The notes under the pieces are model-generated. The model was not told the origin of the DNA and did no database searches. It saw only the letters and a program-made list of their open reading frames with translations. DNA of 40,134 nucleotides from Deltaproteobacteria bacterium. Lineage in GTDB: Bacteria; Desulfobacterota; Syntrophia; Syntrophales; JAFGHS01. This document shows positions 22,066 to 40,134 of the stretch, one piece after another (the first letter of the stretch is position 1; every line of letters begins with the position of its first letter). The stretch covers positions 1 through 40,134 of the forward strand of contig JAFGHS010000175.1 in assembly GCA_016930075.1 (NCBI GenBank), given 5' to 3'. The position numbers and the translations under genes are program-made.

Positions 22066-22420
22066 GGGGGCGTCACGGTTTCGACGGGGATAATTGAAGC
22101 TGTAGCAGCGTACCGAGGTTCCTGCCGGCCTCGTTAAAAAGGCGGGAAACATATAATCGCAGACAAATACGATTACGCTTTAGCCGCTTAAGACGGCTAA
22201 CGTCCTCCTGGTTTTTTCTGCCGGGTCAGATGAGGGCGTCATTTAGACAGAATAGCTGATCTCTCCTGCCTGGCGGGGGAAAGGCGAATTCTTACAGGCT
22301 AGCGACGGATCAATCCCGCCTCCGGGAGTTTTCCGCTGCGAATTCAAATCGGAGGATACGTACGTAGAAACTGCAGTGGAAGATTTTCGGACGCGGGTTC
22401 GACTCCCGCCGCCTCCACCA
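22066..22420 (+). ncRNA. ssrA: tmRNA (SsrA), standard one-piece
   Basis: 5' GGGGGCGUCACGGUUUCGACGGGG and 3' GGACGCGGGUUCGACUCCCGCCGCCUCCACCA form the tRNA-like acceptor and T-arm. The internal tag reading frame GCA GAC AAA TAC GAT TAC GCT TTA GCC GCT TAA gives (A)ADKYDYALAA-stop. Confidence 0.9.
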
Positions 22421-29138: not shown

Positions 29139-29215
29139 TGGTGGGTCGTGCGGGATTTGAACCCGCGACCAACGGATTAAAAGTCCGCTGCTCTACCGAA
29201 CTGAGCTAACGACCC
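29139..29215 (-). tRNA. tRNA-Lys (anticodon UUU)
   Basis: The reverse complement reads GGGTCGTTAGCTCAGTTCGGTAGAGCAGCGGACTTTTAATCCGTTGGTCGCGGGTTCAAATCCCGCACGACCCACCA. It has the cloverleaf with a 7-bp acceptor stem, the anticodon loop CTTTTAA and an encoded CCA. It is nearly identical in layout to E. coli tRNA-Lys. Confidence 0.9.
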
Positions 29216-36360: not shown

Positions 36361-36588
36361 ATGAAACCAATTAAAAAAAAGCTGCAAGATCCGAGACATC
36401 ACGAACGGGATGCCGAAGACGAGTGGAATGAGGATGACTTCTCCATTGGTGAGGAGGACGAAATAGACAAGTGGGACGATTTATCCCTGGACGATCTTGA
36501 AGAACTCGACGAAATGGACGAAATGGACGAATGGGATGAAGATTCCCTGATGGATGACGGCGAAGACGATGAGGACGAATGGGATTAA
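36361..36588 (+). CDS. Hyper-acidic small protein (75 aa, ~50% Asp+Glu, four Trp in D/E-W-D/N contexts), co-transcribed with the sirtuin
   Basis: MKPIKKKLQDPRHHER followed by DAEDEWNEDDFSIGEEDEIDKWDDLSLDDLEELDEMDEMDEWDEDSLMDDGEDDEDEWD. CAGGAG SD 8 nt upstream. It lies 18 nt after the cobB stop. Its stop overlaps the convergent alpha/beta-hydrolase stop by 4 nt. Confidence 0.5.
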   Translation: MKPIKKKLQDPRHHERDAEDEWNEDDFSIGEEDEIDKWDDLSLDDLEELDEMDEMDEWDEDSLMDDGEDDEDEWD

Positions 36589-37409
36589 CAAGTCGCTGAC
36601 AGGTGTTTTTTGATAAAATCTTTTGCCGCGCCGTTGAAATCATCGGCGGCATCGATGTTGACGGCATGTCCGCCGTTGAACTCAACGATATGAAGGTGCG
36701 GCATGTTGGCTTCGGCAAAATTGCGGAACGGGGTAAAACGTTTTTCCTGCCTGCCGCTGATCAATAAAGTAGGCGTCGTATTTTTGTGAATCTCCTGACG
36801 AACGGATAGCTGTGGAAACGTGTAGCGCATGGTATTGGCGACTCCCAGAGGGCTGATCAGCTTCGAATCTTCCACCAGCGCCGCTTTCACGTCTGCGCGG
36901 AGCCGTCGGGCGTTGGCCGGATGAATAGGGAGTTTGCGAATCCCGTCGATGCCTTCCTGAAGAATGGCTTCGGCTGAGGCCGTTGTCCCCTTTCTTGTTT
37001 CTTCCATGTCATGGATTTCCCGGAAAGCGGATGTCGTATTCGTGAATATCTGGGCGGTCACGCGTTCCGGGCATTCGAGGGCGTATCGCAGCGTAAGGCC
37101 CGCGCCCAGCGATTGTCCGCAGAGCATCCATTGCGATATGCCGAGGCTTTTGCGGATGTTTTCAAAGGCGCTGATGTATCCTGCAGGGCTGTACGCATCG
37201 GGCCGGTCGGGCGCCGGCGAGCGGCCATGCCCCAGCAGTTCGACAATGACAAGCCGGGCCGTTTGAGAAAGGGATGCAATATTCGGGATCCACTGGGCGC
37301 GGCTGGAAAGGAATCCGTGAAGCAGCAGGATGTGGGGGCCGTTTTTCCCGTGCACCTCCCAGTAAGGTTCGTATGACCGAGGTGAATGATTCATAATTGC
37401 TGTCGTCAT
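36585..37409 (-). CDS. Alpha/beta-fold hydrolase
   Basis: HILLLHGF oxyanion region. GxSxG nucleophile CGQSLGAG. C-terminal His (GGHAVN). Confidence 0.85.
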   Translation of the reverse strand: MTTAIMNHSPRSYEPYWEVHGKNGPHILLLHGFLSSRAQWIPNIASLSQTARLVIVELLGHGRSPAPDRPDAYSPAGYISAFENIRKSLGISQWMLCGQSLGAGLTLRYALECPERVTAQIFTNTTSAFREIHDMEETRKGTTASAEAILQEGIDGIRKLPIHPANARRLRADVKAALVEDSKLISPLGVANTMRYTFPQLSVRQEIHKNTTPTLLISGRQEKRFTPFRNFAEANMPHLHIVEFNGGHAVNIDAADDFNGAAKDFIKKHLSATC

Positions 37410-37789
37410 GCTTTGGTCAACAGGGAGGAGATTTCTTTCAAATTGTCCATTAATTTTTGCGTGCTGATCGGTCTTGCATCAGGGTTGGCCAAATCCATTT
37501 CGGCCATAACGACGGCGCCCGACAGGGAAACGTCACAGCCTTCGGTGTTTGTATTGATATGGATCTCCATTTTTATTCTGTCACGAACAAACAATCGTGA
37601 AATGAATGTTTCCATAAATGCGACGACACCCGAGGACTCAGGTTTCCTGTCGTAAATCGTGATCAGGGCTTCCCGGTCGCTGAACGTTTCCACGCCAAAG
37701 ATGTACCGTCTGTCTCTGGAGAATTTTTGCAGGGAATCCTTAATTTTTGCAATGCCCGTTCCTTTTATCGAAAGAATCTGTTCAGACAT
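37406..37789 (-). CDS. Hypothetical protein (~127 aa), translationally coupled (ATGA overlap) to the alpha/beta-hydrolase gene
   Basis: ORF with its stop overlapping the hydrolase ATG. I prefer the ATG at 37787-37789 (MSEQILSIKG...). No recognisable motif. The SD is weak. Confidence 0.45.
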   Translation of the reverse strand: MSEQILSIKGTGIAKIKDSLQKFSRDRRYIFGVETFSDREALITIYDRKPESSGVVAFMETFISRLFVRDRIKMEIHINTNTEGCDVSLSGAVVMAEMDLANPDARPISTQKLMDNLKEISSLLTKA

Positions 37790-38299
37790 GGTTGCTCGTA
37801 CCGCCTTTTGATGCCTCGTTCCGTTTAGTGATCCGAGGCATTTATCGGGATTTGCTTTTGCCATTTTGCGGGGCGAAGTATAAGAGCAAGACGACGACGA
37901 GTCAAGAATTTTAAAACGAATTTTAAAACGACAGAATATAAAACAACACTCTTCCTTCGCACCATAGCAAACAGGTTCGCACCAACCGGGCCATTTGCGG
38001 GAATTTCATAACCATGAAGCCGCCATCTTCATCGACGACGCGCCTGATGTCTTTCCTCGCGCAGCTTCACCTACTGCCGATTTCATCACAGACTTTGCGA
38101 CATATTTTGAATGTCTCTGATTTCTCCACGTTCACCTTCCCTTTTTCCCCTGTCGCTATGGGCTGATTGAAGAGATGGAAGATTCTCACAGTATATTCTC
38201 CCGACAAGTGTCACTGCTGCAGGCCCGGCTTGCCTGACCTGCCAACAGGAAGGATTTTTGAAGGTAACATTCCCCCTCCCCCATATATAAGTCCCTGAC

Positions 38300-38326
38300 C
38301 AGGATATGCGGCAGCCGCATATCCTG
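38300..38326. repeat. Perfect 13-bp inverted repeat (CAGGATATGCGGC-a-GCCGCATATCCTG) in the AT-rich spacer upstream of the OLD-family gene
   Basis: Read directly from the sequence. It is not positioned as a terminator for any called gene. It could be an operator, a recombination site or a boundary hairpin. Confidence 0.4.
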
Positions 38327-38562
38327 ATATTACAGACCAAATGTGCACGTCTGGTGGTGTTCTCATTTGAATTCTTTGTTGCTCATACAGAACATTCGTT
38401 CTATTAAGTCAGGAAAAACATTAATAATATGCCAGAATATCGATTACAATTGTCTTCAAAAATACTTGTCATTCTTTTGATGCTGTAGTATTTTCCAATT
38501 GCTTTTTTTCAGAAAGGAAACAAGCCGTATAATAATCGTTATATGAAGAAAGTGACTGAACT

Positions 38563-40131
38563 ATGAGAATAAAAGATATACATGTCACGAACGCTTTGCC
38601 CGTTGAATTATTTGACGTAGAAGATATTTCAGACATCGTTGTAATTGCTGGCCCTAATGGTGTCGGGAAAACTCGACTTGTTTCCGCACTTATTTCTCAT
38701 TTCCAGAATTTGAACGGTAAGAACATAAAGTTCAAAATTCAAGCCACTTCAGATGATGAAATCGCTGCATGGGGGAAGCGAGAACTTGATACCAGTGTGC
38801 AGCAAGATGCCGATTTACTAACACAGATGCTTCAGCAGAATCGACAACGACGAAATCTCAAAAGCAGCGTATTTTACTATGAGAGTAATCGAAGCATCCA
38901 AAAAATCCAACCACTATCTTATCAGTGGGATATGCCTGACCCTTGGGAAGAAAAAATATCTTGGAATTTCACGTTTGGCGGATTAGCTAGCAGGTTTCAG
39001 GATACGCTTCACGCAATTTTTAAAAAAATTCAAACTCAAAAAACGTCTATCGCAAATAGGGCAATAAGTTTGAAACAAGAAGGGTACGAGTCAATGAAAC
39101 TCGAGTTCTCAGACCCCCTCGATCCTTTCAGGGAAGCTTTCTTCAAACTTCTCGGTCCGAAACGACTCCTAAAGGCGGATGTTCAAGGCAACACTCTCCG
39201 TTTCGAACACAAGGGAAAAGAATACGACATTAATGCATTAAGCTCTGGAGAACGGGAAGTTCTCAATATCGCGTTTGATTTTTTACTTCGTAGCCCTTCC
39301 GATTGCATCGTTTTCGTAGACGAACCCGAACTGCATCTTCACCCGGAGCTATCTTCCAAATTGATCAGCACGCTAAAGAGCGCTGGAAAAAACAATCAAT
39401 TCATACTTTGCTCGCATTCACCGGACATAATTTCGTCCTCTCTTGAAGATACGGTGATCTTTCTAACCCCACCTGGTGAGAACAGCGTAAACCAAGCAGT
39501 AGTGCTTAAGCCAGATGATCAGTCAACAGAAGCGCTCAATCGTCTGGGACATTCGGTGGGTGTCGTCTCACTTGGAAAGAAGATCGTCCTAATAGAAGGC
39601 ACTAAAGCAAGTCTGGACAAACAAACATATGTGCATATTCTAAAGAATCGATTCCCAGAGCTGGTTCTTCTTCCTGGCGGCGGTAAGGGAAATCTCGCGG
39701 CATTTGATCAGGTCGCCGAAAAAGTTTTGACCAAAACCATGTGGGGAATTGATTTTTACATGCTCGCAGACCGCGACGCGTTGGGAGACAGTTCAACGAT
39801 GCCGCGGTCAGTTGGTGGGCGTTTCAGAACGCTTAGCAAATACCACTTAGAAAATTACTTTCTTGATGCGAATATTCTCGCTCGTGTGTTCCAAATCATG
39901 GAGCCTGCCGATTCCTGGCTCTGCAAACCAGACGGAATAGATATCGTATTGCGAGAGATAGCGTGCGAACACATTCCTTATGCATCAGTTCTTATTGTGG
40001 CAAACGAAAGGCGGCGAGCTGCGGGAAATGTGGATGTGATGCTAAAGCGGAACGTGTCAATGAAAATGAGACACTTCCATAAAGAATTTAGTGTCGCAAA
40101 GGATCACTATTTTCCGGCACCGGTTTATTGA
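38563..40131 (+). CDS. OLD-family (overcoming lysogenization defect) / GajA-PARIS-like ABC-type ATPase fused to a TOPRIM-like nuclease domain
   Basis: Walker A AGPNGVGKT. ABC signature LSSGEREV. Walker B CIVFVDEPELHLHPE. H-loop FILCSHSP. C-terminal TOPRIM-like elements IVLIEGTKA (Glu) and FYMLADRDAL (DxD). The gene and its 5' flank are visibly AT-richer than the rest of the window. TATAAT at 38528-38533. Confidence 0.85.
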   Translation: MRIKDIHVTNALPVELFDVEDISDIVVIAGPNGVGKTRLVSALISHFQNLNGKNIKFKIQATSDDEIAAWGKRELDTSVQQDADLLTQMLQQNRQRRNLKSSVFYYESNRSIQKIQPLSYQWDMPDPWEEKISWNFTFGGLASRFQDTLHAIFKKIQTQKTSIANRAISLKQEGYESMKLEFSDPLDPFREAFFKLLGPKRLLKADVQGNTLRFEHKGKEYDINALSSGEREVLNIAFDFLLRSPSDCIVFVDEPELHLHPELSSKLISTLKSAGKNNQFILCSHSPDIISSSLEDTVIFLTPPGENSVNQAVVLKPDDQSTEALNRLGHSVGVVSLGKKIVLIEGTKASLDKQTYVHILKNRFPELVLLPGGGKGNLAAFDQVAEKVLTKTMWGIDFYMLADRDALGDSSTMPRSVGGRFRTLSKYHLENYFLDANILARVFQIMEPADSWLCKPDGIDIVLREIACEHIPYASVLIVANERRRAAGNVDVMLKRNVSMKMRHFHKEFSVAKDHYFPAPVY

Positions 40132-40134
40132 TCC

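Follow-up and report, generated by a model that had tools for sequence, protein, structure and literature searches.

The two-gene form of the defense system PARIS, in which AriA and AriB are separate proteins, has been studied in mechanistic detail (PMC11464382, PMC10802264, PMC12409363). In this form, an AriA hexamer sequesters AriB, and phage proteins such as Ocr bind AriA; once freed, AriB forms dimers that nick the anticodon stem of tRNA-Lys(UUU) and of a small number of further tRNAs, and translation stops (PMC11464382, PMC12409363). Merged ariAB genes make up two of the eleven PARIS clades ('merged 1/2') of Burman et al. 2024 (PMC11464382), and models for merged AriAB, a class-4 OLD family, exist in PADLOC (PDLC02981/02982) and DefenseFinder. 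Here, we analyzed a stretch of 40,134 bp (the window), which is an entire contig of a metagenome-assembled genome (MAG) of a Deltaproteobacteria bacterium. Its last open reading frame (ORF; 38563-40131, plus strand, 522 codons) is deposited at NCBI as MBN1665144.1, 'ATP-binding protein, Deltaproteobacteria bacterium'. In our view, bases 38563-40047 are most probably the first 495 codons of a horizontally acquired, single-gene merged PARIS-type ariAB that was disrupted after codon 495 by an insertion sequence (IS) of the IS3 family. The window gene is a disrupted member of a shorter, divergent merged-AriAB subclade, that is, of an already known kind of system.

Domain architecture and family assignment

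The modules and motifs of the gene are as follows:

38563-40047, plus strand: probable 5' 82% of merged PARIS-type ariAB, codons 1-495 of ~605 (homolog alignment)
38563-39492, plus strand: ABC-ATPase (AriA-like) module, residues 1 to ~310 (Pfam AAA_15 1e-18, AAA_21 5.2e-17)
38650-38673, plus strand: Walker A, residues 30-37
39238-39255, plus strand: signature LSSGER, residues 226-231
39310-39330, plus strand: Walker B VFVDEPE, residues 250-256
39409-39423, plus strand: H-loop CSHSP, residues 283-287
39520-40047, plus strand: TOPRIM part of an AriB-like (DUF4435-type) module, residues ~320-495, without the C-terminal helical bundle

An earlier note, made from the letters alone, had described a full ABC ATPase joined to a TOPRIM-like C-terminus in a protein of the OLD superfamily, and this description was borne out by intact catalytic motifs in both parts. 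The ABC motif set was complete and its motifs were invariant in 34 homologs. In the TOPRIM part, acidic residues were located at E345 (in VLIEG), D352, D403/D405 (in ADRDA) and E430 (in HLENY), and E345, D352, D403, D405 and E429/430 were likewise invariant in the 34 homologs; a lack of such residues, named in the earlier note as a ground for refutation, was thus not observed. The acidic residues of AriB are E26, D30, D88, E90 and E122 (PMC11464382, PMC10802264); judging by order and spacing rather than by superposition, E345/D352/D403/D405/E429-430 are candidate counterparts of these five.

Searches of the whole window protein against Pfam returned ABC ATPase families only. By far the best PADLOC model was AriAB PDLC02981 (E 5.7e-51), and the weaker matches (Septu PtuA, AriA, MADS3, retron ATPases and GajA) covered the ATPase part only. 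The window copy matched the AriAB profile up to position ~559 only, whereas the full-length homolog P0002 (604 residues) reached E 1.6e-64, its residues 162-598 being colinear with profile positions 247-689 of 694. A full-length homolog could also be aligned with a canonical 680-residue AriAB at 28% identity; the colinear alignment covers 406 residues, with the signature motif at one end and the C-terminal W...PGK motif at the other. The best solved chain for the ATPase was AriA in a single-sequence search (8ux9_B, E 5.8e-10), whereas a family-profile search slightly reversed the order (retron PtuA-type 9n69_A, 5.8e-13; AriA, 5e-12).

The second module pointed in the same direction. The window TOPRIM segment by itself matched PADLOC AriAB at 4.7e-13, and the C-terminal 293 residues of a full-length homolog matched AriAB positions 412-690 of 694 (E 8.1e-25); the only other PADLOC matches of the homolog's C-terminal half were AriAB PDLC02982 and AriB PDLC02983. 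This half matched no GajA, Old or Eco8 model and no Pfam family, hence no TOPRIM_OLD. DUF4435 exceeded its Pfam cut-off in the relative P0085 (31.6 vs 27 bits, model positions 5-223 of 238). The AlphaFold model of the C-terminal half (predicted local distance difference test score, pLDDT, 82.5; predicted template modeling score 0.77) places a helical bundle after a TOPRIM-like core of beta/alpha type, and AriB 8ux9_A was its sole Foldseek match in the Protein Data Bank (PDB) under 1e-3. Thus, of the families offered in the earlier note, the fused-PARIS-like one was supported by the top PADLOC match and the best fold, and GajA and class-1 OLD were not.

The window copy has an AAA_15/AAA_21 ATPase with all motifs and a DUF4435-type TOPRIM domain with its acidic residues, and end-to-end colinearity with the AriAB profile in one frame was observed for the family (P0002). 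All full-length relatives have the C-terminal helical bundle, which the window copy lacks; since the homology of this copy ends at residue 495, the window gene is a truncated rather than an intact member of merged AriAB.

Several observations weigh against this assignment. The family scored 217 bits on the AriAB model, compared with 309-341 bits for canonical AriAB of ~670 residues, and its first ~160 residues aligned better to the PtuA model; it is therefore to be placed as a divergent sister group of canonical AriAB. Between Walker A and the signature, its ATPase lacks ~135 residues relative to E. coli AriA; it may form neither the hexameric propeller nor the trigger pores. Because the nuclease is fused, it cannot simply dissociate, and activation would have to occur without dissociation. 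Pfam DUF4435 missed the window protein and P0002 and matched only two of 34 relatives, and the TOPRIM core of the models was modestly confident (pLDDT ~47-70). A sequence profile of the C-terminal half found no AriB among PDB sequences, and thus the link to AriB rests on hidden Markov model and fold evidence. The literature on PARIS trigger sensing and tRNA cleavage covers the two-gene E. coli form, and we found no tested merged AriAB in it. Finally, a chimeric metagenome assembly or a minority variant could account for the IS junction, a possibility considered below.

The IS3-family junction and alternative explanations

An exact look-up of the 522-residue sequence in a contig index yielded no record. 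At least 120 relatives had identities of 50% or more, and 1627 matches were obtained at E<=1e-5. Among the matches listed (119 besides the window protein), almost all were 599-612 residues long, and the few shorter ones were apparently partial. The 522-residue query aligned to the listed relatives over ~95% of its own length. Its identity to P0002 was 88% over residues 1-495 and ended at K495, after which P0002 continues for 110 residues. At the DNA level, homology to loci L001-L005 (81% nucleotide identity over 38525-40046) stopped at 40046/40047. All 33 aligned homologs extended ~110 residues past position 495, with W550, P555-G556-K557 and F590 near-invariant. The remainder of the contig was resolved into the following features:

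40048-40134, minus strand: terminus of a ~1.58-kb IS3-family IS, 94% identical to element ends in L010 and L011
40048-40087, minus strand: non-coding IS end with inverted repeat, 40 nt
40088-40090, minus strand: stop codon of OrfB
40091-40132, minus strand: last 14 codons of the transposase OrfB
40048-40131, plus strand: 27 IS-derived codons and TGA closing the truncated frame by accident, with no homolog similarity past K495

Since 40048-40134 is an IS terminus, the '522-residue protein', which had been taken for complete, consists of 495 native and 27 IS-encoded residues. Thus, MBN1665144.1 as deposited is a chimeric frame made of a disrupted defense gene and IS-derived codons.

The element was recognized through a 26-mer from the final 87 nt, which was found in two metagenome contigs, L010 and L011, and nowhere in a scan of genome contigs. 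The minus-strand frame reads INKPVPENSDPLRH followed by a stop, the exact C-terminus of a 334-residue rve protein of L011. The full element is ~1583 bp long (L011 100-1682, L010 204-1786); the two copies are 93% identical, have differing flanks and carry the 26-mer at one end. Likeness to the IS3 family lies in its ~1.58-kb size, its inverted repeats and its two genes, which in L011 are a 156-residue OrfA (HTH_Tnp_1 2.9e-5) and an overlapping 334-residue OrfB (rve 2.6e-25, rve_3 5.9e-12), as well as in AAAG on both sides of the L011 copy, which looks like a target duplication. On the other hand, the terminal inverted repeats are imperfect, with no complementarity between the 6 nt at the tip of one end and those at the tip of the other, no obvious duplication was seen in L010, and the window contains just 87 nt from one terminus. 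The contig stops within the element, as this is a repeat that the assembler was unable to bridge. The right-hand edge, read previously as that of a defense island, is therefore an assembly break. The homologs do lie in variable and often defense-rich contexts.

In the model of a full-length homolog, the break maps to the loop between helices 470-486 and 501-522, so six predicted helices (501-602 of P0002) are lost. Defense by AriB is abolished by mutations that are predicted to disrupt its dimer, namely F137A and, in the C-terminal part, E285R (PMC11464382). With the helical bundle, the region of E285R, gone, the IS-truncated window product is therefore probably inactive.

We consider it unlikely that the organism carries an intact gene, with the 40047/40048 join being an assembly chimera or a minority allele and the system being functional in most cells. 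The contig does derive from a MAG, just one flank of the insertion can be seen, and the window and L011 agree at six of the seven bases before the IS end (GCTAAAG vs GCAAAAG), which might have seeded a false join. However, so few shared bases do not make up an assembler k-mer, the break falls exactly at the element terminus set by L010 and L011 with their unrelated flanks, as transposition gives, and the window flank ends in AAAG, the tetranucleotide on both sides of the L011 copy. Still harder to defend, and contradicted by data already in hand, is the idea that the 522-residue ORF is a genuine short variant with a dispensable C-terminal extension and a natural end at 40131: the ORF is uninterrupted, has its stop inside the window and is annotated as a protein by NCBI, but all 33 aligned homologs carry the ~110 further residues with their near-invariant positions, and the DNA of the final 27 codons matches an IS end at 94% identity and overlaps a transposase frame on the opposite strand.

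Highly improbable, too, is a different function, in which the protein would be a DNA endonuclease of the class-1 OLD or Gabija GajA type: its TOPRIM DNase, governed by the sensing of nucleotides or ATP, would nick DNA or degrade it, and a helicase acting as partner might be encoded past the end of the window. The domain order is identical, GajA models match at 1e-14 to 3e-15, the full-length model matches retron-Eco8 OLD and GajA chains, and a DEAD-box helicase lies 300 nt downstream of the homolog in L006. Yet matches to GajA/OLD models extend from the ATPase to the first TOPRIM strand at most, the C-terminal half lacks any GajA, Old, Eco8 or Pfam match, and no UvrD-type gene adjoins any of the eight homologs whose loci were compared. 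GajA, as suggested in the earlier note, is thus disfavored by models that match the ATPase only and by the lack of UvrD in the eight loci, and class-1 OLD by the lack of a TOPRIM_OLD-type domain. The retron-Eco8 type, also raised there, fared no better: no reverse transcriptase-domain gene (Pfam) was called beside any homolog, NCBIfam retron_eff_Eco8 gave 63 bits vs a cut-off of 250, and Rfam at gathering threshold detected only tmRNA and tRNA in the window. A truncated merged ariAB remains the preferred reading.

Genomic contexts, base composition and upstream region

The eight distinct homolog loci had no neighbor in common. In L001-L005, a ParE toxin-antitoxin pair lies upstream of the ariAB homolog, and a 198-residue gene with a faint DUF429 signal follows 24 nt 3' of it, then a NERD-domain gene (L001 3048-4446, and L002-L005). 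The 198-residue gene was considered as a conserved partner and rejected, being absent from L006-L009 and L012-L015. In L006 (Thiohalobacter thiocyanaticus AP018052, 5371-12736), a ~7-kb insert between flagellar hook-length/GGDEF genes and fliL-fliM holds about six non-flagellar genes (DUF6338, a 475-residue unknown, ariAB, the DEAD-box helicase, a 225-residue unknown and DUF2058), and the ariAB homolog has a GC content of 0.42 vs 0.62 in the flanks. L009 is a defense island with AbiU2, a KAP NTPase, an XhoI restriction-modification system, Mrr and SLFN. The neighbors in L012-L015 were a glycosyltransferase, a recombinase with SIR2_2 and a deaminase, or acyltransferases, and those in L007 were DUF4272 and an IS3-type transposase. 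The latter is a transposase pair (HTH_Tnp_1 and rve; L007 10787-11937) located 1 kb downstream of the ariAB homolog there.

In each of seven further loci tested, the ariAB homolog had a lower GC content than its flanks, and an AT-rich gene in unrelated neighborhoods fits a mobile single-gene system. With no common neighbor among the eight loci, there is no reason to expect GajB, a reverse transcriptase or any other partner past 40134. Just beyond that position, where a partner gene had been anticipated, lies the IS3 transposase, and the family has no conserved neighbor. For annotation, this means that no partner gene should be sought downstream of ariAB here.

In the window, the computed GC content of 37865-40134 was 0.436 vs 0.521 for 1-37864, and the lowest value for any other 2270-bp segment of the contig was not under 0.490. 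The GC content at third codon positions (GC3) of the ORF at 38563-40131 was 0.423, compared with 0.51-0.755 in all 27 other long ORFs. This anomaly and the variable contexts of the homologs indicate that the window gene is horizontally acquired. The drop in composition previously placed at 37865 is thus real, whereas its boundary has to be moved: the change point by maximum likelihood was at ~37384 (range 37326-37734), ~480 bp left of 37865, at the border between an alpha/beta-hydrolase gene and a 152-residue ORF. Therefore, this ORF falls within the low-GC segment. It may either have arrived together with ariAB or belong to the host and just be AT-rich. It had no Pfam, PADLOC or PHROG match. 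The spacer together with the 152-residue gene gave nothing, whether compared by tblastx with all comparison loci or by blastn with the remainder of the window; a blastn search of plasmids with 37865-40134 gave no match, and no relatives of the flanking hydrolase were found in the scan of genome contigs. The features to the left of ariAB are as follows:

37406-37864, minus strand: 152-residue ORF, GC 0.460, GC3 0.523, its stop overlapping the hydrolase gene start
37906-37929, strand unassigned: tandem 12-mer GAATTTTAAAAC x2, plus a shared G at 37930
38300-38326, strand unassigned: perfect palindrome, 13-nt arms 38300-38312/38314-38326 with 1 nt between
38506-38533, plus strand: promoter-like site TTTTCA-16-TATAAT, of putative function (consensus scan 10/12)
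38536-38543, plus strand: second -10-like motif CGTTATAT, counterpart TGTTATAC in relatives
38543-38566, plus strand: mini-ORF MKKVTEL, 7 codons, its TGA overlapping the ATG at 38563

DNA likeness to the closest relatives begins just 38 nt 5' of the ariAB ATG. Further upstream, the tandem repeat that had been reported as a 13-mer at 37905-37930 does exist, as a 12-mer starting one base later. A minus-strand promoter-like site lies at 37905-37877, and its -35 abuts the repeat. Because of this adjacency, the repeat is assigned rather to the leftward operon of the 152-residue and hydrolase genes, which it more likely serves. The perfect hairpin at 38300-38326 was confirmed with its 13-nt arms; it folds as a 12-bp stem (z -4.6 vs shuffles), is unique in the window and lies outside the region common to relatives. 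A role as an intrinsic terminator was rejected, as there was no T-tract on either strand and a terminator scan was negative.

Comparison of the upstream regions of the eight loci by blastn revealed conservation of a short -10-like motif but of no extended element. The TGTTATAC motif occurs ~26 nt 5' of the ATG in L001, L006 and L014 within otherwise unrelated upstream DNA, and TGTTATAC/CGTTATAT is possibly an extended -10 box travelling with the gene. The mini-ORF exists as described before, with its ATG at 38543 and its ATGA overlap, but the suggestion of a leader peptide was rejected: the ATG is not conserved, being ACG in L001-L005 with no equivalent in L006-L009, and it falls in or beside the likely -10 box. 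The ATGA junction overlap is present because the second codon, AGA, of MRIK is conserved. On this basis, the mini-ORF is probably due to chance.

Some other features of the contig should also be mentioned. A strongly acidic 75-residue ORF (36361-36588, plus strand) with D/E runs and the C-terminal end ...DDGEDDEDEWD sits between a Sir2-family deacetylase gene and the hydrolase gene; it had no Pfam, PADLOC or PHROG match. The contig also carries a tmRNA gene (22066-22420, plus strand; tag ADKYDYALAA) and a tRNA-Lys(UUU) gene (29139-29215, minus strand). This tRNA is the main target of E. coli PARIS, and its presence on the same contig as a PARIS-type gene is probably a coincidence.

Possible mode of action and comparison with known systems

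The intact protein of ~605 residues would comprise an N-terminal ABC ATPase acting as an AriA-like sensor and, fused to it, a DUF4435-type AriB-like effector. By analogy with two-gene PARIS, the ATPase part may restrain the nuclease as long as no phage protein has been sensed; on sensing, the nuclease would form pairs and cut tRNA of the host, leading to a stop of translation and abortive infection. In this genome, the IS3-family insertion would have removed the bundle and appended 27 unrelated residues, probably leaving the copy inactive. A more tentative idea is that the ~605-residue family represents a distinct compact lineage of single-chain PARIS-like systems, in which the AriA sensor inserts are largely missing and the nuclease is unreleasable, with activation in cis or by chain pairing and perhaps with another trigger class or RNA target; we would give this less than an even chance.

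Thus, the locus adds one more case of a defense gene knocked out by an IS and draws attention to a large subclade of environmental, compact merged AriAB proteins, the interest of which lies in how such fused compact proteins switch on. Neither the annotation nor the biology alters the current understanding of PARIS or OLD systems.

Among the known systems, class-1/2 OLD and Gabija GajA resemble this protein in combining an ABC ATPase with a TOPRIM domain in one chain, and the general fold is recovered. They differ in that the TOPRIM region here is not of the TOPRIM_OLD type, the structural match is much weaker and no GajB/UvrD partner is present. Two-gene PARIS of E. coli B185 (AriA and AriB; PDB 8UX9, 8V45-8V49) is closer, with AriA as the best solved match in the single-sequence search and with a presumably shared logic of an ATPase sensor restraining a TOPRIM tRNase. 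However, the two parts are fused here, so activation by AriB release is impossible as described, the ~135 residues missing from the ATPase are where AriA bears its trigger-binding and hexamer-forming inserts, and the AriB part has ~13-14% identity and no sequence-level PDB match.

The closest likeness is to merged PARIS. The family differs from it in size (~605 vs ~660-694 residues), in reaching about two-thirds of the canonical bits, in its first ~160 residues, which are nearer to PtuA, and in a smaller insert between the ATPase lobes; in addition, the window copy is cut by the IS at codon 495. On the other hand, both have a single chain running from an AAA_15/21 ABC ATPase through a DUF4435-type TOPRIM domain to a helical bundle, with conserved ATPase motifs and five acidic TOPRIM residues, and both are encoded by a stand-alone gene in variable, island-like contexts.

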